From positions 1-53,367 of the forward strand of contig CAMAVZ010000012.1 of assembly GCA_945861645.1 (NCBI GenBank): DNA of 53,367 nucleotides, in the 5' to 3' direction. Shown here piece after piece: positions 2,788 through 48,251 of this stretch. This DNA is from Opitutus sp. GAS368 (GTDB lineage Bacteria > Verrucomicrobiota > Verrucomicrobiia > Opitutales > Opitutaceae). Under the pieces are notes generated by a model. The model did not search any database, was not told where the DNA came from, and saw only the letters and a list, made by a program, of their open reading frames with translations. The translations under genes were made by a program, and so were the position numbers. Every line of letters starts with the position of its first letter. Within the stretch, counting starts at the first letter, position 1.

Positions 2788-3561
2788 TTAGTAGGTAATC
2801 GTGTAGCCCACGGTGACAAAGCCGCGACCAATCGCCGCAGTATTTACCGTCTTCCCCAGGCTCCCCTGCTTGAGGAAGTTGTTGGAACCAGCGCTATAGC
2901 TCCAGCCGACTGTGATCTTGGAGGTTGGGCTGACTTGGAATGGCATGGCTAGGCCGAGAAGGTAGTAGTCACCCCAATTTTTGATGTTAGGCGTATTATT
3001 GGGAGCGTAGTCAGTTAGTTTAAACGTGCCTACGGTCGCGGTGAAACTCAGTTCCGACGCAATTGCCGCCAAGGGAACGCTGAAGGCAGCCGTTAACTCA
3101 GCCGTGGGGCCCTTGACCACGAGATCATAGTAGAGCTTGGGGGTCAGTTTGAGTCCACCGATGGTGTAATTGAACGCAATGTTTGGCTCGAACGTTCCCT
3201 TATAAAAACCATTGAGCTTAACGGCGTTGGGGTACGTATAAAAGGTTACCCCCGGCACAACCGTCATATCTTTGGCCACCTCGAGTGAGTACGAGCCATA
3301 GAAATCAAGCTCGGGAGCGGATTGACCAACTACTTTATCCTGCAAAGGGAAGTTGGTCCAAAGGCCGGCCACAAGGCTGCCGCGACCGTATTCAATAGAG
3401 GGTTGGAAGGAGGTACCCCCAAGGCGGGTACCCCGAAACATGTATTGTGAGGTCACCGCTGAGCTAACGACTAATGAGCCGGTTGTTGGCTCGGTGGTCG
3501 TTTGCGCAGTGAGCAGAGACCCCATCGCCAGTGCAGCGAGAGAGAGCATTATTTTTTTCAT
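2788..3561 (-). CDS. TorF/TIGR02001 (Gcw_chp)-like outer-membrane beta-barrel protein
   Basis: Signal peptide, TSQYMFRG motif, ELDFYGSY, C-terminal aromatic residue (GYTITY). Confidence 0.75.
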   Translation of the reverse strand: MKKIMLSLAALAMGSLLTAQTTTEPTTGSLVVSSAVTSQYMFRGTRLGGTSFQPSIEYGRGSLVAGLWTNFPLQDKVVGQSAPELDFYGSYSLEVAKDMTVVPGVTFYTYPNAVKLNGFYKGTFEPNIAFNYTIGGLKLTPKLYYDLVVKGPTAELTAAFSVPLAAIASELSFTATVGTFKLTDYAPNNTPNIKNWGDYYLLGLAMPFQVSPTSKITVGWSYSAGSNNFLKQGSLGKTVNTAAIGRGFVTVGYTITY

Positions 3562-37250: not shown

Positions 37251-38501
37251 ATGGAAACTGTTTCTCCGCACAAACGAGTCGTTGTCACCGGTATGGGCGT
37301 CATCGCCTCACTGGGCCATAACGTGGATGATTTTTGGGCTAATCTCCTCGCCGGTAAATGCGGAGTTAACCGAGTCACGCTTTTTGATGCGAAGGATCAC
37401 ACCTGCCAAATTGGGGCAGAAGTTCGCAATTTTGATGCCACCAAGCTGATGGATCCCAAAGAGGTTCGCCGGAATGATCGCTACACGCATTTTGGATTTT
37501 GTGCGGCTAAGCAGGCAGCCGCTGATGCAAAGCTGGATATGAGCAAAGAGGATCCTGATCGGGTCGGCGTGATTATTGGCTCTGGGATTGGCGGCATGTT
37601 GACCATCGAAAATCAGCACAAGATTTTGATGGAACGAGGCCCCCGCAAGGTGTCGCCCTTCATGATTCCTTCGCTGATTAGCAATATGTGCAGTGGCTTG
37701 GTTGCGATTGAGCTCGGGGCTCGTGGGCCGAATTTTTCTATCGTCAGCGCCTGTGCCACCGCGACGCATGCGATCGGCGAGTCACTCCGCATGATTCGTG
37801 GTGGCGAAGCCGATGTGATGGTGTGTGGGGGGGCGGAAGCTTCCATCACTCCATTGGCTTATGCTGGATTTTGCTCCATGAAGGCGATGAGCACCAATAA
37901 TGATAATCCCCAGCAGGCTAGTCGTCCCTTTGATTTGAATCGTGATGGATTTATTATGGCTGAGGGCTCAGGTATTTTGGTGTTAGAAAGCCTAGAGCAT
38001 GCGTTGGCTCGCGGAGCGCGCATCTATTGTGAGATCGCTGGTTATGCCGCGACCTGTGATGCTTTTCATATCACTTCACCTGATCCTGAGGGCAAGGGGC
38101 TATCCCTCGCCATGAGCCGCTCGCTGCATGATGCCCGCATCGCACCAGCGGAAGTCGATTACATCAATGCCCACGGCACTTCGACTCCTTACAACGATAA
38201 ATTTGAGACGCTAGCGATTAAGAAAGTCTTTGGCGACCACGCCCGCAAGGTTTTGATCAGCTCGACTAAGTCAATGACCGGACACTTGCTGGGGGCAGCG
38301 GGCGGCGTTGAGGCGATCGTGAGTATAAAAGCAATTCATACGGGCGAGATACCTCCCACGATTAATCTCGATACACCTGATCCCGATTGCGATTTGGACT
38401 ACGTGCCGAACGTAAAGCGAAGCGCTCGGGTAAATACTGTCATGAGCGATAATCTTGGGTTCGGCGGCCAAAATGCAGCGCTGATTTTCCGCCGAGTCTA
38501 A
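37251..38501 (+). CDS. fabF: Beta-ketoacyl-ACP synthase II
   Basis: [35 protein letters not shown]. Confidence 0.97.
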
Positions 38502-38506
38502 CTGAT

Positions 38507-38545
38507 ACTGATCGGAAACTGAATTGGCCTGGGGGAGGGATTTAA
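38507..38545 (+). repeat. Block-boundary repeat type A, copy 1
   Basis: ACTGATCGGAAACTGAATTGGCCTGGGGGAGGGATTTAA; preceded by an extra ACTGAT at 38501-38506. Confidence 0.9.
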
Positions 38546-38657
38546 CGTCGCAAGAATCGGGAGGGCGTACGGTAAGTCATGGGAATCGTGACGATTCGCG
38601 GGGGCGGAACACTTGCAGACGAGCGGCGGGCCAGCAAAACCGAAGGGACGAATGGCG

Positions 38658-39266
38658 TCACGGCGCCGCCTCGCGCAACGCGCCGCGGGCGCGGTTGAAG
38701 ATCGTGAGTGCGAGCAGCGCGAGTTCAACGGCGAGCAGCCAGTTTGTCCACGCGCCAAGCGCCACCCCACAGCCGCCGAGCAAACCGAGCAAGCCAAATA
38801 CAAATGCCCGATCACTTTTGCCGGCCGGCCCGTCGTAGCGGCGCGACGCGCCGATCTGCACCGCGACCACCCCCGTCATTTCGCTCACGACGGCGAGCAA
38901 CACCACGCCGACCACAAGCGGCGTCGAGATCGCGCCGATGCTGGCGAACGGTAGATAGAGCGCGGCGTCGCTGAGCACATCGCCGATTTCGTTCAGAATC
39001 GCGCCGAGTTTGGATTTTTGCGCAAACTCGCGCGCGAGCACACCGTCGATGGCGTTGAGCGCCATGCGCACGAAGCACACCACCGGCACGGCCAGCAGCA
39101 CGGCGCGCGAGCTCGGTTGCCACCATAGCGCGCCACCCGTCGCTGCCGAGAGCACGAAAGCCGCGACGGTCACCTGGTTTGCGGTCACGCCTGCCGCCGC
39201 GAGCGACCGCACGAGCGGGCGAAGCAGGTTTTGAAACGCGGGCTTGAGCTGGTAGATTGTTGGCAT
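38658..39266 (-). CDS. CDP-alcohol phosphatidyltransferase (YnbA-like)
   Basis: IYQLKPAFQNLLRP, TANQVT, RMALNAIDGVLARE..GAILNEIGD, GKSDRA. Confidence 0.9.
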   Translation of the reverse strand: MPTIYQLKPAFQNLLRPLVRSLAAAGVTANQVTVAAFVLSAATGGALWWQPSSRAVLLAVPVVCFVRMALNAIDGVLAREFAQKSKLGAILNEIGDVLSDAALYLPFASIGAISTPLVVGVVLLAVVSEMTGVVAVQIGASRRYDGPAGKSDRAFVFGLLGLLGGCGVALGAWTNWLLAVELALLALTIFNRARGALREAAP

Positions 39267-39278
39267 GGGCGATTTACT

Positions 39279-39328
39279 GTGGGAGCGGGTTTATCCCGCG
39301 ACGAGTCGGGGCATAAAGCCCCTCCCAC
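39279..39328. repeat. REP pair (REPIN-like, GTGG family)
   Basis: GTGGGAGCGGGTTTATCCCGCGA followed by an inverted GTGGGAGGGGCTTTATGCCCCGA. Confidence 0.75.
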
Positions 39329-39337
39329 CTCGAGTTT

Positions 39338-40288
39338 TCACGGCACGTAGAAATATCGCAGCAGGTGGAAAAACACCGGCGCGGAAAAACAGAGCGAGTC
39401 GATCCGATCCATCATCCCGCCGTGGCCCTCAATCATGGAGCCGTAATCCTTCACGCCGCGATCGCGCTTGATGGCCGACATCACAAGGCCGCCGAAGAAT
39501 CCCATCACCGTGATGAGCAGCGCGAACAGCCCTGCCGCCCACCACGTGAACGGCGTCGCCCACCACAGCGCCGCGCCAAGCGCGCTCGCCGACAGCACGC
39601 CGCCGATGAGGCCTTCCCACGTCTTCGAGGGGCTGAGCACCGGTGCGACCTTATGGCGGCCGAGCAGTTTGCCCCAGACGTATTGGAGGACGTCGCTCGA
39701 CTGGCCGACGAGCACGACGAAGAGGAGCAGCTTCGCGTTTTGCCCCGCGTAGCCGGGAATCTCGATCATCAACAGCGCTGGCACATGGCTCAGGAAATAC
39801 ACGCACACCATCAGGCCCCACTGAATCTTCGCCGTGCGCTCGAGGTAGTGTGCCGCGTCGCCGCCCACCACCGCAAAAATCGCAATCGCGACAAACGCAT
39901 ACACCGGCACAAACACCGCGAAGAACCCATACCACTGGATGCCGGTGAGCACATATTGAAACGGCAACACCATGAAAAACGCCGCGAATAGCGCGAGATG
40001 ATCCGCCGGTCGCGACGGCGTGAGCGTGATGAACTCCCGCAGCGCCATGAACGACATCAGCGCAAACAGCACCACCGAGCCCACCCCACCCGTTACGAGC
40101 GCGAGCGAAAACACGATGACCATCATCCACCACGCGCGCACGCGGGCCGCGAGATTCACGATGGTCGGCGAAGGCCCGTCGGGGCCCGTGCGGCCCACTA
40201 GCACACTTGTGATGATGCTGGAAATCACCAACAACACGAGAATGCCGCCGAGCAGCCAGAGGAGTTGAGGATCGCGCAGGGCCTTCAT
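39338..40288 (-). CDS. Phosphatidate cytidylyltransferase (YnbB-like)
   Basis: RVRAWW, DVLQYVWGKLLG, SPSKTWEG, SAIKRDRGVKD, GHGGMMDRIDS. Confidence 0.92.
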   Translation of the reverse strand: MKALRDPQLLWLLGGILVLLVISSIITSVLVGRTGPDGPSPTIVNLAARVRAWWMMVIVFSLALVTGGVGSVVLFALMSFMALREFITLTPSRPADHLALFAAFFMVLPFQYVLTGIQWYGFFAVFVPVYAFVAIAIFAVVGGDAAHYLERTAKIQWGLMVCVYFLSHVPALLMIEIPGYAGQNAKLLLFVVLVGQSSDVLQYVWGKLLGRHKVAPVLSPSKTWEGLIGGVLSASALGAALWWATPFTWWAAGLFALLITVMGFFGGLVMSAIKRDRGVKDYGSMIEGHGGMMDRIDSLCFSAPVFFHLLRYFYVP

Positions 40289-40911
40289 GGAGTGTGCAGA
40301 GCGACGAGAGCGGCGCGTGCCCGGGCGAGAAACGCCTCCTTGGTTTCTCCGTCGACCGCCGCGAGTGGCGCGCCGATCGCCGCGGTCGCGATGAGCGGCA
40401 CCGGCAGCGCCGTGCCCTTGGGCATGATCCGATTGAGGTTCTCAAGAAACACGGGCACGAGTTTCACGCTCGGCCGCGACCGGGCAAGGTGGTGGATGCC
40501 GGGCTTGAACGCGCCGACCGAGAGTCCATCGCCGCGCGTGCCCTCGGGAAACACGATCAGCGAATCGCCCGCGTCGAGCGCAGCGCACATCGCGGTGATG
40601 GGATTGCACGCGACCGTTACGTGTTTCCGCTCGATCAAAACCGCGCGGAAAATCCCGTAGGCGATGCCGCGGTGCACCGCCGTCTTCTCCCAGTAGTCGC
40701 GTCCCGCGACCGGCCGCGTGCGCTCGCGCCACGCTTCCGGCAGCGCCGCCCACAGTACCGCGAAGTCGAGATGACTGGAATGATTCGCGTAGAAAATGCA
40801 CGGCCCCGAGGTGGGCAGCGCCGCCAGCGGCAGCGGACGCACGCCGCATAAGTTGCGCAAAAAACTCGCCAGGATCCCACGCGAATTACTGATATGAAAC
40901 TGGATTGGCAC
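40285..40911 (-). CDS. Lysophospholipid acyltransferase (PlsC-like); native start appears lost, nearest start is a GTG inside repeat A copy 2
   Basis: YANHSSHLD, RPVAGRDYW, FPEGTR, FKPG motifs; no ATG between the repeat and the catalytic motif. Confidence 0.8.
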   Translation of the reverse strand: MPIQFHISNSRGILASFLRNLCGVRPLPLAALPTSGPCIFYANHSSHLDFAVLWAALPEAWRERTRPVAGRDYWEKTAVHRGIAYGIFRAVLIERKHVTVACNPITAMCAALDAGDSLIVFPEGTRGDGLSVGAFKPGIHHLARSRPSVKLVPVFLENLNRIMPKGTALPVPLIATAAIGAPLAAVDGETKEAFLARARAALVALHTP

Positions 40912-40926
40912 GGGGGAGGGTTTTAA
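40888..40926 (+). repeat. Block-boundary repeat type A, copy 2
   Basis: ACTGATATGAAACTGGATTGGCACGGGGGAGGGTTTTAA. Confidence 0.9.
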
Positions 40927-40927
40927 G

Positions 40928-41083
40928 TTAAAGCCTCTCGTCCCACGCCTACCCTCCCAGCAACTCGTTCTGGTCGAAGCAGCCCTCGATGCTCTGGCTG
41001 CACCGGGCTTCGGCAATGCGCCGTGCAGCGTCCGTGTCCTCGCGGGCGTAGGAAAAAAAGACGGCCTTCGTGGGATCGCTCAT
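40928..41083 (-). pseudogene. Truncated, decayed 5' fragment of a second TIR-domain gene
   Basis: MSDPTKAVFFSYAREDTDAARRIAEARCSQSIEGCFDQNELLGG*AWDERL* aligns with MSESPKAVFLSYARQDTDAAKRIAEALRGFGVEVWFDQAELHGGDAWDAKI; ends at repeat A copy 2. Confidence 0.85.
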
Positions 41084-43458
41084 AACGGCTGGGCGGTTTT
41101 AAGAATTTCTTCGAAGCGCGGGTCGTTTTTCAAGCGAGACCAGAGGGGATCGTGGCGGAATTCGCTCGCGGTCATGGAGCCGAGCTCGGCCATGAGCTTG
41201 CGCAACTCGGCCAGCGCCTCCTCGGGCCGGCCGGTGACGATCAACACCCCGCCGAGGAAGTGGCGCACAAACCCGATGCTGTACTGGTCCAGGTTCTCCT
41301 GCGCGGCCATGGCGGCACGGGCTTCGCGGACGGCCACCTCGGCGCGGCCGGCAAAGGCTTCCGCCTGGGCGATGCCCATCTGCGCCACCGGCAGCTGCCG
41401 GGCGCTCCAGGAGCCCGCGCGGAAATACTTGATGGCCTCGTCGGCGAACTGCCGGGCCTCGTCCGGCCGGCCGAGCAGCCACGCCAGCTTGGCCCGGTGC
41501 AGGCTCACCGGGTCGTTCACGATCCCACTCAGGCCCGGCACGGTGGACCAGCGCGGATCCAGCAGATGCCGGCCCGCCTCGGCAAGATCGCCGGAGTTGA
41601 GGGCGAATTTGTAGGCGGCATCGAGTCCGTAGGGATCGCTGGCCCTCGGCGGCAAGGAGGCAAAGTCGGGAAGATAGGCGGACCGGTCGCCGTCGAGTTC
41701 CTGCCGGGCCAAGAGAGAGTAACGCATGGAGTTGTAATCCCCGATCAGCAACCCGCGGTGCTGGTCAGCGCGGGCCACCACGGCGGCATAACGCCGCATG
41801 GCCATCATCGTCTCGACGAGGCTGCCGAGGCCGCCGGCGTCGTTGGGATTGAGCGCGGCGCTCCGTTCCAGCCGGGCCAGCGCCTCCCCGATCTCACCGA
41901 CCCGGCGATGGGCCAGCGCCATGCGGTATTGGAGCTGCGCATCACTGGGCAGGTCGATCTCCGCGGCGCGATATTTCTCCAGGGCGCCACGCCAGTTGTT
42001 GTTGCAGGTATATTCGAAGGAGCCCTCGGCCAGCCGCACCTCGGGCGAACCCGGCGCCAGGGCACGCGCCTTCTCCAGGGCGGCCAGCGCCTGGGCCCGG
42101 CGTTCGGGCGTGGGGTCGAGCGCGGCGAACCAGAACATGGTGCCATGCGCGATCGAGGCCTGCACGTGCGCTAGGGTGAAGTTGGGATCCAGCGCGGCCG
42201 CCTCCTCGTAAAGCAAGGCGACGCGCTCGTGTTCGGCCCGTATTAAGGAAGAAGTTTGTATTGCCTGGTCGAGGATGCGGGCCCGCAGGTAGAGATCGTA
42301 GGCCTGCTGGTTTTCCGTCGGCCGCCGCGCGATCAGCGTCCGCTCGCCCGCGGTCAGACTGGCCTTCAACGCGGTGGCGATCTCTTGGGTGAGCGCAGCC
42401 TGAATCGCGAAGACGTCAGTGATGTCCTTGCTGTAAGTCTCGGCCCACAGGTGTCCGTCCGTCTGGGCGTCGATTAGCTGCACGTTGAGGCGCACCTTGT
42501 TCCCCGCGCGCTGGACGCTGCCCTCGAGCACGGTCGCGACGCCCAGTTCGGCGGCGATCTTGCGCAGGTTCCGCTGGCCGGTCTTGTAAGGCATGACCGA
42601 GGTACGAGAGATGACCTTCAGGTCGCGGATCTTCGCTAGTGCGGTGATGAGGTCGTCGTGCATGCCGTCGGCGAAAAACTCGTTCTCCTTTTCCGCGCTC
42701 AGGTTGGCGAACGGCAGGACCGCGATGGATTTGCCTGCCACCGCGATCGGCGGCGGAGTGGCAGGTGAGGGTGAAAGTGAAGGGGCTGCAACAGCCGGCG
42801 ACGCGACGGGCGGTTTCGGTTGACGCAAGAAGACGAATCCCACGCCGGCTGCGACCACGAGCGCAACCACCACGGCCCAGATCCAGCTCGGGACGCCGGA
42901 TTTGCGCCCTGCCCGGCTGTCGTCTGTGCCCTGTCGTCCGTCCTCTGATTTCCGGGCGACCTGGCGAAACTCCGGCGGCAGGGTCGGCGGGCGCGGCGGC
43001 TCGGGATTTAGCGCGGGCTTGCGCGGCGGCTCGAGCAGTCGCTTCACCAGCGCGACGAACTCTGGCGTCGGTGCGCCGCCGCTCAGACGTGTCCACTGGT
43101 AGCGCATGAATTCCTCCGGCACGTCGGCGCCGGATTCCGTCGTGTCGTCGATGACGACCGGCACCATGAATGTCCGGCTGCTGCCCATGTCCTGCATGCG
43201 GTCGATGGCGATCTTCCACTCGCGGCGGAAGTAGCCCTCGGCGCGCGCCTCGGTCTGCTGCGAGACTAGCGGCACGAACAGCGCGCATTCGCGGATCTGC
43301 CGGCGGATCTTCGCATCCCAGGCGTCGCCCCCGTGCAGCTCCGCTTGGTCGAACCACACCTCGACGCCGAAACCCCGCAACGCCTCGGCGATGCGCTTGG
43401 CCGCGTCCGTGTCTTGACGAGCGTAACTTAAAAAGACGGCTTTGGGGGATTCGCTCAT
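41080..43458 (-). CDS. TIR-domain membrane protein with TolB-like (SIAVLPF) domain and TPR repeats
   Basis: AVFLSYA..VWFD..GDAW..EGYFRREW TIR; TM WIWAVVVALVV; KSIAVLPFANLS..VISRTS..VLEGSVQR; TPR C-terminus ending DPRF. Confidence 0.9.
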   Translation of the reverse strand: MSESPKAVFLSYARQDTDAAKRIAEALRGFGVEVWFDQAELHGGDAWDAKIRRQIRECALFVPLVSQQTEARAEGYFRREWKIAIDRMQDMGSSRTFMVPVVIDDTTESGADVPEEFMRYQWTRLSGGAPTPEFVALVKRLLEPPRKPALNPEPPRPPTLPPEFRQVARKSEDGRQGTDDSRAGRKSGVPSWIWAVVVALVVAAGVGFVFLRQPKPPVASPAVAAPSLSPSPATPPPIAVAGKSIAVLPFANLSAEKENEFFADGMHDDLITALAKIRDLKVISRTSVMPYKTGQRNLRKIAAELGVATVLEGSVQRAGNKVRLNVQLIDAQTDGHLWAETYSKDITDVFAIQAALTQEIATALKASLTAGERTLIARRPTENQQAYDLYLRARILDQAIQTSSLIRAEHERVALLYEEAAALDPNFTLAHVQASIAHGTMFWFAALDPTPERRAQALAALEKARALAPGSPEVRLAEGSFEYTCNNNWRGALEKYRAAEIDLPSDAQLQYRMALAHRRVGEIGEALARLERSAALNPNDAGGLGSLVETMMAMRRYAAVVARADQHRGLLIGDYNSMRYSLLARQELDGDRSAYLPDFASLPPRASDPYGLDAAYKFALNSGDLAEAGRHLLDPRWSTVPGLSGIVNDPVSLHRAKLAWLLGRPDEARQFADEAIKYFRAGSWSARQLPVAQMGIAQAEAFAGRAEVAVREARAAMAAQENLDQYSIGFVRHFLGGVLIVTGRPEEALAELRKLMAELGSMTASEFRHDPLWSRLKNDPRFEEILKTAQPL

Positions 43459-43607
43459 GTCAGGGATTTGCTCCCGGATTTTTTAGCCATGAAATGGCAC
43501 GAAGGGGTACGAAAAGAGAAATTCTGCAGGAAGGGCGAGTCGAGCCTAATCACACCCCCACGCCCTGCGGGCATTAGCCTTCGCCCAAGCGCTACGGCCC
43601 GACAACT

Positions 43608-43646
43608 ACTGATCGGAAACTGGATTGGTCTAGGGGCGAGTTTTAT
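43608..43646 (+). repeat. Block-boundary repeat type A, copy 3
   Basis: ACTGATCGGAAACTGGATTGGTCTAGGGGCGAGTTTTAT. Confidence 0.9.
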
Positions 43647-44971
43647 TTATTTTTCTTCGCATTCCCGGCGGGGGCGTCGGGCGCGCTGGCGGGAGCTTGC
43701 TCGGCGCTCCATTTGTCCCACATCGCCTGCAATTCTTTGACCTTCGTGGGCTGGGCCGCGGCGAGGTCTTTCGATTCACCGATATCGGCGGCGAGGTCGT
43801 AAAGTTCGGGCTGCCCGCTGCCGCCGCGGGCGACAACGAGCTTCATGTCGCCGTGACGAATCGCCCACTGCGGGCCGTAGCGCCAGTAGAGGGTTTGATG
43901 TGGACGGGAGTTTTTTGCGCCGGTGAGAAACGGCATCAGGTCGACGCCGTCGATTTGCCACGACGCCTCGGGTTTACCGCCGGCAGCGATGATCGCCGTG
44001 GGCAACACGTCGAGATTCATCACCGGGAGGTCGGAGGTTTTTCCCGCGGGGATCTTGCCTTTCCACTGCGCGATGAACGGAACCCGCGTGCCGCCCTCGA
44101 ACGTGGTCATCTTGAACCCGCGCAGCGGGCCGTTGGAGGAGGTAATGCTCTGGGTCGGTCCGCCGTTGTCGGAAATGAAGAAGATGAGCGTATTTTCTTC
44201 CTGTCCGAGCTCGCGGATTTTTCCGAGGACGCGGCCCACGGCGTCATCCATGGCCGACATCATGGCGGCAAAGGTCTTTCGTTTTTCGTCCGTGATGCCG
44301 GGGAAACGGTAGAGATACTTTTTCGTGGCTTGGAGGGGGGCATGGACGGCGTTGAAAGGGAGATAGAGAAATCGGGGCTTGTCTTTATTTTGCTCCAACC
44401 AGTCAACCGCGCGGTCGGCATAGGCGTCGGTGGTGTAAAACGCGTCGTCCTTCACCTCGCGCACGTCGTTCGAGAGGCGCGAGTCGACAAAATTGGTGGG
44501 ATGAAAAAACGGCGTGTTGTTGAGCGTGCCGAAGAATTCGTCGAAGCCGCGCTTCGTGGGGCGGTTCTCGGGCTGGTTACCGAGGTGCCACTTACCGATC
44601 GCGGCCGTGGCGTAGCCGAGGGCTTTTAGGCGGGTCGCCAGAGTGGTCTGGTCGGCGCGCAGGCCAACGGCATTGGCCACCGTGTTGAATTCGTGACCGA
44701 AGCGCGTGGGGTAACGGCCCGTCATAAGGCCGGCGCGTGATGGGCTGCAATAGGTCGCGGCAACGTAGCCGTTGGTGAAGCGCAGGCCGTTCTGGGCAAG
44801 CGAATCGATATGGGGCGTCGGAATATCTCGGGCAAAGCCCTGCGCGGTGATTTCGCCCCAACCGAGGTCGTCGGCGTAAAAGATAATGACGTTGGGCGGG
44901 GACGCCGCGCCGGAGCAGAGCGAGCTGAGAAGACCAAGGCCGAAAACAAGACGAAGGAAACCGAATTTCAT
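43643..44971 (-). CDS. Secreted formylglycine-dependent sulfatase (S1)
   Basis: PNVIIFYADDLG, CSPSRAGLMTGRY, GKWHLG, SDNG; stop codon lies inside repeat A copy 3. Confidence 0.93.
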   Translation of the reverse strand: MKFGFLRLVFGLGLLSSLCSGAASPPNVIIFYADDLGWGEITAQGFARDIPTPHIDSLAQNGLRFTNGYVAATYCSPSRAGLMTGRYPTRFGHEFNTVANAVGLRADQTTLATRLKALGYATAAIGKWHLGNQPENRPTKRGFDEFFGTLNNTPFFHPTNFVDSRLSNDVREVKDDAFYTTDAYADRAVDWLEQNKDKPRFLYLPFNAVHAPLQATKKYLYRFPGITDEKRKTFAAMMSAMDDAVGRVLGKIRELGQEENTLIFFISDNGGPTQSITSSNGPLRGFKMTTFEGGTRVPFIAQWKGKIPAGKTSDLPVMNLDVLPTAIIAAGGKPEASWQIDGVDLMPFLTGAKNSRPHQTLYWRYGPQWAIRHGDMKLVVARGGSGQPELYDLAADIGESKDLAAAQPTKVKELQAMWDKWSAEQAPASAPDAPAGNAKKNK

Positions 44972-45026
44972 TGGAAGGGTGAGGTTGGGCGAACCGGTGA
45001 ATGACGGCCAGCGAGCCCGATGGTTA

Positions 45027-45079
45027 CGCGTCAGTTTGAATAAAATCTTCTCCCGAGTGCGCCGGCGCGGGGGCTTTAA
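45027..45079 (+). repeat. Block-boundary repeat type B, copy 1
   Basis: CGCGTCAGTTTGAATAAAATCTTCTCCCGAGTGCGCCGGCGCGGG then GGCTTTAA; matches 46535-46579. Confidence 0.85.
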
Positions 45080-45163
45080 AGTGGTTCATGATTTTAGCTG
45101 AAGAGGAATGAGGAGACTACCTGTCCACAACCCATTTGGGTTTGGTGTCATGCGTCTCTTTTC

Positions 45164-45233
45164 ACAGGAGGAAACGGAGAGAACAGAGAAAGGCATCAGG
45201 ATCTACGCCTCAGTTTCCTCCGCTTTTTCCTGT
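45164..45233. repeat. Imperfect inverted repeat (REP/MITE-like) downstream of the desaturase
   Basis: ACAGGAGGAAACGGAGAGAACAGAG ... CTCAGTTTCCTCCGCTTTTTCCTGT. Confidence 0.65.
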
Positions 45234-45253
45234 AAGAACGGATTGGTTCTGAT

Positions 45254-46258
45254 TCAGTCCCGGTGCTCACCCGCCAGCTTGGCGCCTTCGCCATCGGGGA
45301 GGCCGTCGCGGAAGGTGCCGAACCACCGGTCGAAGGGGATGACGCTGTCGCCGTAGTTGCACTCAAAATAGCGGTGGTGGAGATAGTGAAAATACGAGCC
45401 CGTGGGCCATTTGCCGTCGGCGATCGGTCCCTCGAAGCCGTGGTGCGAACCCGCCGGCCCGAGCGCCGCGTGCTGCATCGTGAAGATGAAGTGGAACGGG
45501 TGCGACGGCACCACCAAGTGGATCAAACCCACGCTAAGGTAGAGAGTCGTCTCGACGGGGTGCATCGCCATGCCCGACCAGGGGATCGGGTTGACGTTTT
45601 TGTGGTGTAGGTAGTGGACGCGGTGGTAGATCGGCTTCCAGTGGATGAACCGGTGCACCCAGTAGAAATGAAATTCCCTCCAGAACGGGATGACGAACAG
45701 CCACGCCACGAACCACACGGGATGCCGCGCCCAGTCGAGGTACGGGATGTGGTGGTTCGCATACAGCCAGAGCGTCAGCACCTCGTAGCCCGTCCACACG
45801 AGCAGCGCGACGCCGGACGTCCAGAAGATGTTGTCGTAAACCTGGTCGCCAAAGAGGAACTGCCGGCTTTTCTGCGCGGGCCAGCGGGCGTCGTATTTGC
45901 CCTTCGTGCCCTGGCGCCGGAGCGTGTAGAGATAGAGATGATAGGCGCCGTAATAGAGCCACATCAGGACGAGATTGCGCACATAGACCTGGCCGATCCA
46001 GCCGGCCTCGAAGTGGACGCAGCGGGGGAGGGCGGGCTGCGTGAGGTACCAGGAACCGCCCGCGATGGAGAGCAGCAGGAGGTTACGCGGCCACATGAAG
46101 CCCGGGTTCGAGACCACCCACTTCAGCATCGCGCCCAACCGGAGCGGCCACTTGAAGACCGGAGCATAGCGGATGGGGTAGGGCGGACGCCACTCACCGC
46201 GGGCGTTGCGCGTCTCGGGCGAAGACGATTCCGCGGCGGGCAAGGGGTTTACCGACAT
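45254..46258 (-). CDS. Sterol desaturase / fatty-acid hydroxylase family protein
   Basis: His boxes FYWVHRFIH, HYLHH, HHG, FHYLHH..NYG. Confidence 0.9.
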   Translation of the reverse strand: MSVNPLPAAESSSPETRNARGEWRPPYPIRYAPVFKWPLRLGAMLKWVVSNPGFMWPRNLLLLSIAGGSWYLTQPALPRCVHFEAGWIGQVYVRNLVLMWLYYGAYHLYLYTLRRQGTKGKYDARWPAQKSRQFLFGDQVYDNIFWTSGVALLVWTGYEVLTLWLYANHHIPYLDWARHPVWFVAWLFVIPFWREFHFYWVHRFIHWKPIYHRVHYLHHKNVNPIPWSGMAMHPVETTLYLSVGLIHLVVPSHPFHFIFTMQHAALGPAGSHHGFEGPIADGKWPTGSYFHYLHHRYFECNYGDSVIPFDRWFGTFRDGLPDGEGAKLAGEHRD

Positions 46259-46368
46259 GGGGCCGATGTTGGAAAAGCCGCGGGCTCAGACAAGGCCGCA
46301 AATGCTCCCAGACTTTGATCGTTGTAGGAAATTACGCGAAACGGCGCGAATCTATCAGGCGATTGATT

Positions 46369-46407
46369 ACTGATCGAAAACTGGATTGGCATGGGCGAGG
46401 GGTTTAA
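46369..46407 (+). repeat. Block-boundary repeat type A, copy 4
   Basis: ACTGATCGAAAACTGGATTGGCATGGGCGAGGGGTTTAA. Confidence 0.9.
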
Positions 46408-46481
46408 GGGGAGCTTGGTTTTCGTTACCGCTTAATCAAGTTGATATAGCCGTAGCTCTCGTGGGTGAGGCCGATCATGTG

Positions 46482-46523
46482 ACTGATCGGGAACTGGATT
46501 GGCCTAGGCGGCGAGATCTTCAA
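46482..46523 (+). repeat. Block-boundary repeat type A, copy 5 (degenerate 3' part)
   Basis: ACTGATCGGGAACTGGATTGGCCTAGGCGGCGAGATCTTCAA. Confidence 0.85.
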
Positions 46524-46534
46524 ACTTACTCTAG

Positions 46535-46579
46535 CGCGTCAGTTTGAATAAAATCTTCTCCCGAGCGGGCCGGCGCGGG
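46535..46579 (+). repeat. Block-boundary repeat type B, copy 2
   Basis: CGCGTCAGTTTGAATAAAATCTTCTCCCGAGCGGGCCGGCGCGGG; first 31 bp identical to copy 1. Confidence 0.85.
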
Positions 46580-46758
46580 CGATAACGACGACATACCATG
46601 GGCGACGCAAAGTAAGGGGTCGGACCAACCCTGTGGAAACAGACTGCGTAGGGTGATGATGAAGGCAAAATTGCTGCCTATGACTTGCCTAAACCTTGCG
46701 CGGGAGGGGCGAGCGCGGGGCAGGGATTTATGAAATTACCGAAAGAATAAATTCCCCG

Positions 46759-46788
46759 TTGACGCGCCATTGCGCCGCCCTTTTAACT
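46759..46788 (+). promoter_or_regulatory. Putative sigma-70 promoter of tRNA-Phe
   Basis: TTGACG, 18-bp spacer, TTAACT, 16 bp upstream of the tRNA. Confidence 0.55.
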
Positions 46789-46804
46789 CGGCCCTTTAGT
46801 GAAT

Positions 46805-46880
<76 letters not shown>

Positions 46881-46982
46881 CTTTCAGGGTTGGCAGCGGC
46901 TGCGCCGTTCGGCCGCTAAGCGGCCGGTTTCGGAATCCTGATGCCTTGGCCTGGCGGCCTCGGGTTCTCGCTTCGCTCGGAA

Positions 46983-47001
46983 CCGAGACTTGCCACCACT
47001 T
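46983..47001 (+). repeat. Direct repeat of the tRNA-Phe 3' end (att-like)
   Basis: CCGAGACTTGCCACCACTT vs CCGAGACTCGCCACCACTT (46865-46883), 18/19 identical. Confidence 0.85.
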
Positions 47002-47489
47002 GACATACAATAATTTAAGTGTTTTTAAGTTGTTACAAAAGAAGTATGTATCGAGACTGGCTTGGCAAGTAACGTGGAAACCCAGTCGGATTTCCCATGC
47101 GATGGCACCTCTGATAAGACTGTTTATCCGGGGCATTTCCCGCTGGCAATTCAGTCTGCGAGCGACGCCTAAAAGACCTTAGAATGGCCCTAGGATGCGA
47201 TTTGCAGGCCATCTGGTCTGCCGTTCTAGGGGCAGAGGGGCGGGGGGGCAACCTCGCCTGCTGGTTGAAACTCATAATCAATCCACCCGCTCCCTAAAAT
47301 TTAATTACAAAGGGGCAAGCCGGGGATGCGGATGCATCAGGTGATTCCCGCAGCCTCCTTTAATTTTAAAAAATGGGGCAAAGGGGCCGCTGGGGGATTG
47401 GACTCGTACTATTCCGTCAAAAGTGGAGCATATATTACGTCTACCTCATTGTGACTGACTTAAGAGTAATCTAAACCCACCGCTGATTT

Positions 47490-48014
47490 ATGAAAAAATG
47501 GATATCTAAAAGCATGCTGATTTTTGCTGCTCTGTTGTTAATTTTTAAACGCAAACGCTAACGACACCATCACTATTCCATAAGGCACTGAAGTGAGAAT
47601 TCGTTTTAACGAAAAACTGTCATCTGAAACATCTATTGAGGGCGATGTATTTTCTATTCAGGTCGAAGACGACGTTGAGCTAGACGGAAAGACAGTTATC
47701 CTCGCAGGAACTAAAGAAAAGGGAGAGGTAACATCGGCTTAAAAAAAGGATTTGTAGGGAAAGCGGGCGAATTAAATATTTGCCTAACCCATATTAAAGT
47801 AGGCGATAAAAAAGTCCGAATCAGGGCAAACAAAAGTAAAGTTGGTGACAGTAAATTAGGAACATCAGTAGCACTTACCTTAATCCTTGGCCCATTAGGC
47901 TTACTAAAAAGAGGCAAAGATATAGCCATCACGGAGGGGCAAACAGTACTCGCCTTTGTTGATGATGATACTGTGGTCCCATTCCCACCTCCAAAAATCC
48001 CGAAGGGGAACTAA
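47490..48014 (+). pseudogene. Disrupted AT-rich gene for a secreted beta-rich protein (TrbI/VirB10-like fold by resemblance)
   Basis: MKKWISKSMLIFAALLLI, frameshift, then NANANDTITIP*GTEVRIRFNEKLSSETSIEGDVF..EVTSA*KKGFVGKAGEL..GPLGLLKRGKDI..AFVD..GN*. Confidence 0.7.
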
Positions 48015-48251
48015 GGGTTAAGTCTATTCGAGTATTCATCCATAGATTACAAAGGGCACAAAAGACGTGCTGGTTGTTGAGTCTAACCATCAAACGCCAA
48101 CGCTCTTTTGTCTGCGGGACAAGTTGGAAAAACTCCTGCCACGTTTGAGTTAGCGAGAAAAAATACACTGACCGTAAAAATTTCCCTGCCAGCGGACTTT
48201 ACATCGCACCACCATTCGGACGGGTCTCGATGCCTTTTGGGAATCTAATAT

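Follow-up and report, generated by a model that had tools for sequence, protein, structure and literature searches.

Co-oriented right ends of an IS91-family element separate foreign gene blocks between fabF and tRNA-Phe of Opitutus sp. GAS368

Insertion sequences (ISs) of the IS91 family use a Y2 transposase of the HUH type and move by rolling-circle transposition; to our knowledge, nearly all reports of IS91/ISCR elements concern resistance and virulence loci of Proteobacteria, and how these elements capture genes is still debated. Here, we analyzed a 53,367-nt stretch of the genome of Opitutus sp. GAS368 (contig CAMAVZ010000012.1, positions 1 to 53,367; hereafter, the window), in which an island between fabF and a tRNA-Phe gene contains five copies of a repeat of about 43 bp, with blocks of unrelated genes between them. 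The initial annotation of this DNA, prepared from the sequence alone, proposed a novel class of gene-capture system, in which a trans-acting recombinase would insert the blocks sequentially. The repeat turned out to be the right end of an IS91-family element, i.e., at the family level it matches a known IS end, which leaves the proposal of a new class without support, and we consider it probable that the island is a decayed element of this family with blocks stacked behind it.

In the IS91 family, the rolling circle starts at oriIS and stops at terIS, and the transposase acts in trans (PMC13181058, PMC3189936, PMC6218425). For IS91, oriIS is placed 3' of tnpA and termination is reported to fail in 1-14% of events (PMC13181058), while for IS801 right-end fragments of 229-679 nt were obtained in 26% of events (PMC3189936). 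A GC-rich subterminal stem-loop was described at the terIS end (PMC3189936, PMC13181058). In the case of ISCR1, variable cargo is found on the oriIS side, co-oriented with outward promoters (PMC6218425).

The repeat unit as an IS91-family right end

Matches to a 21-mer of the unit (0-2 mismatches) were found on the plus strand at 38507, 40888, 43608, 46369, and 46482, where no copy was expected from 100 shuffles, and the five same-strand copies of the initial annotation were thereby recovered with both a repeat finder and a mismatch search. The spacings between them are 2381, 2720, 2761, and 113 nt. Read on the minus strand, the unit of about 43 bp is TTAAAnCCCTCCCCCnnGCCAATCCAGTTTCCGATCAGT, and its copies (with nhmmer E-values) are as follows:

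38504-38547, minus strand: right-end (oriIS-type) unit, copy 1 (E 1.7e-11), without start codon, abutting the fabF stop
40885-40930, minus strand: right-end unit, copy 2 (E 2.3e-10)
43605-43650, minus strand: right-end unit, copy 3 (E 2e-10), without start codon
46366-46411, minus strand: right-end unit, copy 4 (E 2.4e-11)
46479-46524, minus strand: right-end unit, copy 5 (E 5.2e-09), the own right end of the decayed IS

The identity of the unit follows from its occurrence in other genomes (G and L numbers are our labels for the genomes and stretches compared, C numbers those for contigs). Its 18-mer core (up to 2 mismatches) is present in 30 of the 65 genomes of the genus, typically in local same-strand clusters, and an exact 19-mer was found in 84 stretches among 185,579 species genomes, mostly metagenome-assembled genomes (MAGs) labelled Opitutaceae, Opitutales, or Verrucomicrobiota. 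Two clusters, G072:C23 and G051:C20, adjoin a gene with the Pfam domains Zn_Tnp_IS91 (PF14319) and Y2_Tnp (PF04986); both exceed the cut-off in G072, and in the broken gene of G051 PF14319 is clear and PF04986 barely passes (22.3 bits, cut-off 20.9). All four transposases tested score above the cut-off of the NCBIfam model NF033538, "IS91 family transposase" (144-165 bits; cut-off 125). The translation of the G072 transposase gene (L033:7853-9190) contains WHPHVHVIV and RYYGWYSNK, in which we take HVH to be the HUH motif and YYGWY the two catalytic tyrosines (YxxxY). An HUH-type gene co-occurring with the repeat, which the initial annotation had suggested looking for, was found in the relatives.

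At all eight loci examined that hold a transposase gene or fragment (G072, G066, G051, G059, G006, L075, L095, and L080), the unit follows downstream in the same orientation, 0.49-0.56 kb past the end of a full-length gene (five loci) or 0.25-0.54 kb past a fragment, and its exact 19-mer is retained even beside transposases that are 58-61% identical to that of G072. A protein search of the genus gave a close transposase homologue or fragment in nine genomes, each of which has the unit, and no transposase match at E <= 1e-8 in the 35 genomes without it.

Four full elements and one deletion derivative can be aligned over a stretch that begins about 40 nt ahead of the ATG and includes the unit; they are unrelated immediately past the right end ...CCAGTTTCCTATCAGT, which terminates in ATCAGT; over 157 distinct copies, the information content is zero right after this hexamer. 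The left end, CGCAGGCCCGGGCC...CCTGTG, is GC-rich and palindromic and is unrelated to the right one, the two forming no inverted repeats, and the flanks are free of target-site duplications (four elements, by eye). In G072, G066, and G006, the palindrome GGCCCGGGCC precedes the ATG by about 30 nt, and the other elements carry variants of it. Because the unit lies 3' of tnpA, the position described for oriIS of IS91 (PMC13181058), it represents the oriIS side. We conclude that the repeat is the conserved right-hand (oriIS-side) terminus of an IS91-family IS and that this element is widespread in Opitutaceae.

A frame of about 95 codons overlapping the transposase stop (L033 9187-9474) is conserved in the four full elements, i.e., those of G072 (L033), G066, G051, and G059, and matches no NCBIfam family; it may be a C-terminal extension of the transposase or an accessory gene. 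In some MAGs (L093, L095, L107, L110, L124, L080; L039 7531-7574), the terminal 19-mer is repeated head to tail with a period of 19-47 nt in up to five copies, in L095 directly downstream of the transposase gene.

Several other functions of the unit were considered and rejected. Structured RNA was discarded, as Rfam at E <= 1 gives the tRNA-Phe alone, and so was an attC-like or other hairpin: folding of three window copies on both strands revealed none (z -0.5 to +1.4), in line with the lack of an attC-type hairpin noted in the initial annotation. The minus-strand unit can be read as ATG-CCA-ATC-CAG-TTT-CC[G/T]-ATC-AGT (MPIQFPIS) and is fused in frame to long open reading frames (ORFs) at six loci, but a coding or leader-peptide role as the general function was rejected, since an in-frame TAA directly precedes IQFPIS in G072-type units; about half of the copies are also devoid of a start codon, and silent sites show no excess of substitutions (by eye). 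A response-regulator box or promoter was rejected as well (half-sites ACTGAT and ACTGGAT lie 11 bp apart in our own reading; units contain no sigma-70-like promoter).

The genome of Opitutus sp. GAS368 holds six good copies of the unit, five in the island and one on contig C10, plus one weak nhmmer match (E 0.003), and the genome-wide scatter over ordinary intergenic sites that the initial annotation had named as a counter-argument is thus not observed. The sole copy outside the island (C10:39639-39681) adjoins a 432-amino-acid (aa) ORF, presumably a Y-family polymerase as judged from its N-terminal sequence alone; in G004:C5, a unit lies near a homologue of this ORF in a different arrangement.

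The island, its decayed element and its cargo

The genome (G000) is represented by a 2.30-Mb assembly of 116 contigs (84% complete, 57% GC). The landmarks of the island in the window, apart from the right ends, are as follows:

37251-38501, plus strand: fabF, a core gene (ORF; 94-96% identical in G004 and G016)
45027-45071, minus strand: second repeat, copy b, 45 nt, 96% identical to 46535-46579, located 56 nt upstream of the sulfatase start
46535-46579, minus strand: second repeat, copy a, overlapping the tnpA stub and running into the interior of the decayed IS
46567-46648, minus strand: left (terIS-type) end with the first 11 tnpA codons (ATG at 46599; MVCRRYRPRRP)
46805-46880, plus strand: tRNA-Phe (GAA) (ARAGORN; Rfam tRNA)

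In G004 (fabF 94% identical), G019, G023, and G020, tRNA-Phe follows fabF within 150-300 nt without any island; therefore, the window from 38502 to about 46620-46650 is an insertion, 8.1 kb in size and placed 5' of tRNA-Phe, and the foreign origin assumed in the initial annotation is borne out. On the fabF side, the boundary is the stop codon itself: the ORF ends at 38501, the unit starts after five bases, and synteny with the relatives breaks off at 38501-38513. In copy 1, the terminal hexamer ATCAGT is duplicated, the five bases after the fabF stop repeating the last letters of the unit. The blocks are indeed GC-richer than their surroundings: the GC content is 0.59-0.68 over 38-47 kb (0.63-0.68 in 39-44 kb), compared with about 0.50-0.61 in the window up to 38 kb, and at third codon positions (GC3) it is 0.76-0.88 in six island genes vs. 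0.60-0.68 in the called flanking genes. Independently assembled contigs of four lake/freshwater runs from four studies span fabF/copy 1, copy 2, copy 3, and copies 4-5, and hence the junctions are not assembly chimeras.

The statement that the window lacks a transposase proved wrong in part. From 46648 to 46567 on the minus strand, it aligns with five left ends and the first transposase codons of other genomes; the remnant reads ...TTTCCACAGGGTTGGTCCGACCCC...CGCCC ATG GTA TGT CGT CGT TAT CGC CCG CGC (translated MVCRRYRPR), with a GC-rich stem, GGGTTGG-TCC-GACCC, at 46631-46617. A hidden Markov model of the left end matched this genome here (E 4.4e-15) and elsewhere only weakly (C1, E 0.0033); with this profile, no further left end and thus no block with its own terIS was detected inside the island. 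Given the left end and tnpA stub, the island extends from terIS to the last oriIS end, with one left end on the tRNA-Phe side, five right ends, and copy 1 at the fabF stop as its outer boundary. Since the left end is followed by right ends with blocks between them, the cargo is on the oriIS side, as beside ISCR1. We conclude that an IS91-family element, now decayed, and foreign, GC-rich blocks between right ends together make up the window from 38502 to about 46650.

Comparison of the fabF/tRNA-Phe interval between strains, as proposed in the initial annotation, revealed different cargo in close relatives and breakpoints at the repeat. G016 (fabF 96% identical) has another island at the fabF site, with units again in the same orientation, and G050 is arranged differently from both at this tRNA-Phe (98% identity between G050 3377-3553 and window 46708-46884), its cargo matching that of G016 at 97%. 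The homology between the window and G016 starts precisely where copy 1 has its outer end (38507), continues 215 nt inward, and breaks inside ynbA; G050 2548-2688 matches window 46369-46509, and the homology ends exactly at the outer end of copy 4 (46369). Even in the "empty" spacer of G004, in our own reading, about 25 nt of the left end and an apparent degenerate unit remain, and the site seems to have been occupied for long.

In the Logan contigs of four runs (X1, X6, X12, and X16), no joint between units was found, bearing in mind that such contigs lose rare forms. In two of these runs, the lake metagenomes X1 and X6, a copy-4-like unit is joined to other sequence at loose contig ends (46367 and 46401), which may reflect differences between strains at the boundary of the unit, or else copies that belong to other organisms. 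The region directly 3' of tRNA-Phe (46885-48250) has a GC content of 0.44 and no long ORF; synteny with G004 and G050 stops at 46884, so this side of the tRNA gene is a second variable region.

All cargo genes are on the minus strand, and Pfam supported the initial annotation of six of them:

38658-39266, minus strand: CDP-alcohol phosphatidyltransferase, YnbA-like (PF01066 CDP-OH_P_transf; GC3 0.81)
39338-40288, minus strand: phosphatidate cytidylyltransferase family, YnbB/CdsA-like (PF01148 CTP_transf_1, E 2.7e-64; GC3 0.83)
40285-40911, minus strand: PlsC-like acyltransferase (PF01553 Acyltransferase)
40951-41083, minus strand: 44-codon ORF, its ATG overlapping the TIR-TPR stop (ATGA)
41080-43458, minus strand: TIR-TPR protein, 792 aa (TIR_2, E 1.3e-20, and TPR families)
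43643-44971, minus strand: sulfatase-family enzyme (PF00884, E 3.2e-65)
45254-46258, minus strand: fatty-acid hydroxylase/desaturase family (PF04116 FA_hydroxylase)
46249-46392, minus strand: 47-codon upstream ORF, starting at an ATG inside copy 4; also in G016 and G004

The second repeat at 45027 and 46535, also reported initially, was recovered.

At copy 2, the native start of plsC is absent, and the sole in-frame start is a GTG inside the unit, so that the coding sequence is a chimera of IS and gene; the alignment with homologues in G053, G047, and G057 begins at about residue 10-11, with M-K-D of G047 opposite S-R-G of the window. On the other side, 41007-41083 repeats 43382-43458 directly (75% over 77 nt): the first 26 or so codons of the 44-codon ORF repeat the TIR-TPR N-terminus, and this ORF is thus a remnant of a second, tandem TIR gene. 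Lying between a TIR stub and a plsC without its first codons, copy 2 joins unrelated DNA and is not a simple insertion. To judge from the sequence, its two flanks were never original neighbours, and the unit is now the predicted provider of the plsC start codon.

At copy 3, the inner edge of the unit overlaps the sulfatase stop codon, and the ATG of copy 4 opens the 47-codon ORF, which ends 5 nt into the hydroxylase gene, an arrangement kept in G016 and G004. Window 45230-46399 (1.17 kb) is 96-97% identical to G016:C93 and G004:C75, where the hydroxylase block occupies another genomic place, 2.1 kb from 367-aa and 721-aa ORFs which we take, by eye, for flhB and flhA. Another repeat family (about 50-250 nt, with AACCGCGAAGGGCGCGAAGTGACGCGAA) is abundant in G000 (C23, C11, C83, C38, C37) and flanks the hydroxylase block in G016:C93 (L020 1-352 and 1570-3440). 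The TIR-TPR gene has its nearest DNA relatives among GC-rich congeners (G071, 83-89% in parts; G020, 84%), and the identity of the lipid operon to its counterparts in many genomes is about 65-74%; these similarities would fit a transfer of the island cargo from GC-rich relatives into a low-GC lineage. Tandem TIR-TPR paralogues are numerous across the genus (e.g., G007:C225, G064:C1, G052:C11).

Growth of the arrays and competing explanations

Arrays of the same kind are found in the relatives. All 48 of the 48 adjacent unit pairs spaced 100 nt to 10 kb apart are on the same strand (median spacing 1.24 kb), a count made over mutually related loci picked for containing units. In arrays whose head can be seen (G072:C23, G051:C20, and the window), an element, full or decayed, occupies this position, its left end pointing outward; in G006, a deletion derivative is present and further units are absent. 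The cargo is unrelated between blocks and between genomes, comprising elsewhere DHDPS-family, HpcH/HpaI aldolase, MFS, NagB-like, glycosyltransferase, SnoaL, PIN, DUF1801, and DUF2306 proteins. Pfam identified IS110-type and IS630-type (DDE_3) transposase genes at or inside arrays (L032 8208-8978 and 11255-12244, G072:C28), i.e., unit arrays collect other mobile elements. A 709-aa ORF at or in another array (L034 2566-4695) is transposase-like by eye only.

The probable history of the island may be pictured as follows. A transposase supplied in trans would nick the right end at its sharp outer boundary, and each block, together with the right end on its fabF side, would be joined to the outer edge of a resident right end, either as a rolling-circle (one-ended) product or by recombination between right ends; joining at this edge would make arrays grow and exchange content in one polarity. 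The right end could also lend a translation start to the gene behind it, as suggested by the GTG of plsC and the 47-codon ORF before the hydroxylase. We regard such joining of a block with its fabF-side end as most likely; the boundaries fit it better than the module of repeat and following block assumed initially; the idea that each insertion event leaves one repeat found no support.

Several observations weigh against this reconstruction. Breakpoints at unit ends are equally expected from homologous recombination within the 43-bp units. The DNA mobilised in classical one-ended transposition is that beyond terIS and not that beyond oriIS, and a further step is therefore required for cargo to accumulate behind right ends. 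The oriIS regions of IS91 and IS801 have been described with subterminal palindromes; folds of the unit, made for both strands of three window copies and of the G072 end, revealed none (z -1.3 to +1.4), nor was a sigma-70-like promoter predicted in it. No constant target tetranucleotide of the CTTG/GTTC type was evident after the end, only a bias to A (60%), A (63%), and then T, with AATC as the commonest (15 of 157), and a GAAC/CAAG-type tetranucleotide is not evident at either element boundary. No cassette was seen twice, as none of the 45 distinct inter-unit segments shares at least 200 nt with another, and downstream genes have the orientation of the unit in 68 cases vs. 46, according to a crude gene caller. 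Finally, a protein search found no IS91-type transposase in this genome, 84% complete as assembled; the search with the Y2_Tnp family was likewise without match, but its controls were silent too, and the protein search alone counts. A trans-acting enzyme is the likeliest agent, and in this respect the recombinase postulated initially stands, although not as a new class.

A more far-reaching version of the preferred history, which we put forward tentatively and rate as rather unlikely, is that the end of about 43 bp would be a minimal origin, serving as both excision and integration site for a trans-acting Y2 HUH transposase, with the DNA between co-oriented ends as a discrete cassette and arrays growing at the outer edge of the resident end. 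If true, this would be an integron-like cassette platform based on rolling-circle chemistry, with a long-lived hotspot upstream of tRNA-Phe in this clade and ends doubling as portable translation starts.

Among the alternatives, the one that fares best, yet still unlikely, is that the unit is a host repeat (promoter, leader, or REP-like) targeted by the IS91-family element, solo copies being empty targets. IS91-family elements do insert next to short, specific targets, which adjoin their oriIS side (PMC13181058), and solo units are much more numerous than transposase genes (14 to 1 in G072; 19 to 1, the one being a pseudogene, in G051). Units are also often situated just upstream of genes, are able to give start codons, and have no hairpin of the oriIS type. 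A targeted host repeat, however, would leave the four full elements without a right end of their own, as they share no other conserved block between the transposase region and the unit, and does not fit the exact 19-mer beside such diverged transposases, nor the clustering of five of the six genome copies in one island and the strict polarity of arrays. Promoter and leader functions are further countered by the lack of a promoter consensus and by the in-frame TAA interrupting MPIQFPIS in G072-type units.

We regard it as quite unlikely that solo units are independent one-ended miniatures sprinkled into a pre-existing island, in which case the blocks would never have been separate acquisitions and the common orientation would result from a preference of single-strand insertion for one strand at replication forks. 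Copies 4 and 5, with their spacing of 113 bp, do look like a miniature beside another end, a spacing that recurs in G050, and no cassette recurs elsewhere; right-end miniatures of IS801 arise at high frequency (PMC3189936). Nevertheless, the flanks of copy 2 (a TIR 5' stub and a plsC without first codons) cannot have been contiguous, the outer boundaries of the island are one left and one right end, and relatives differ by whole blocks at unit ends. Polarity in 48 of 48 pairs also exceeds the strand bias reported for other HUH elements, which counts against sprinkled miniatures. A dedicated new capture system with a recombinase outside the known mobile-element classes, suggested by the array-like layout, foreign cargo, and lack of an intact recombinase in the window, is hardly tenable, as the unit is physically part of IS91-family elements at eight loci and the window itself carries an IS91-family left end and tnpA stub.

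Comparison with known systems

Having weighed these alternatives, we return to the reading of the repeat as an IS91-family right end with blocks stacked behind it, for which more distant systems offer partial parallels. Like integrons and integrase-less attC clusters, the island is a one-polarity array of unrelated genes with a recombination-site-like repeat, variable content, and an enzyme gene that may be absent from the locus; unlike them, it has no attC-type imperfect palindrome, its enzyme is an HUH transposase instead of a tyrosine recombinase, and blocks can carry several genes and gene fragments. No integrase was identified by Pfam among the six island proteins, IntI not having been searched in the rest of the genome. 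CRISPR arrays differ in that the kilobase spacings found here, together with the one of 113 nt, enclose protein-coding DNA, and repetitive extragenic palindromes or miniature inverted-repeat elements differ in being scattered. Helitrons share the Y2 HUH enzyme, asymmetric ends, and capture by missed termination (PMC4778049, PMC5876387), but they are eukaryotic, with a Rep-helicase fusion and a 3' hairpin terminator, and this likeness is by description only.

In the literature searched, we found no description of solo ends of about 43 bp, strict polarity, kilobase cargo, a turnover hotspot next to tRNA-Phe, or an end used as start codon; likewise, among the papers listed for IS91 and Verrucomicrobia, none was on this topic by title or abstract opening.

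The closest known systems are ISCR-type capture (ISCR1) and IS801-type right-end fragments. IS801 and IS91 likewise have a sharply bounded right end, which is the essential one; in these systems, the transposase acts in trans, as assumed here, left-truncated right-end derivatives arise in vivo, and chimeric coding sequences that take their 5' end from an IS have been described (PMC3189936, PMC13181058). The miniatures of IS801, however, are 229-679 nt long and scattered, whereas the ends described here are about 43-70 nt, co-oriented, and separated by kilobase cargo, with no GAAC/CAAG-type tetranucleotide evident at the boundaries. With ISCR1 and other ISCRs, our elements share an IS91/Y2 HUH-type transposase, a conserved end downstream of its gene, and a gene capture ascribed to rolling-circle transposition; in ISCR1, too, variable, unrelated, and often co-oriented cargo lies on the oriIS side, and the end aids expression (PMC6218425). 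The differences are that the transposases score 118-146 bits on the clade Ia model NF052416 (cut-off 925), that solo ends without a transposase gene occur several per array, and that the cargo consists not of resistance genes but of accessory genes of freshwater Opitutaceae, with no link to class 1 integrons.

In freshwater Opitutaceae, an environmental lineage, solo right ends thus occur by the dozen, in arrays of strict polarity whose cargo consists of ordinary accessory genes (for lipid synthesis, TIR-TPR, sulfatase, hydroxylase, sugar catabolism, and parts of toxin-antitoxin systems) and turns over between close relatives. The arrays would account for the presence of 63-68%-GC genes from GC-rich congeners in a streamlined 57%-GC genome and bear on whether a 43-bp end suffices for mobilisation. 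They constitute a resistance-free natural data set from which to ask in what way cargo comes to be stacked on the origin side of rolling-circle elements.

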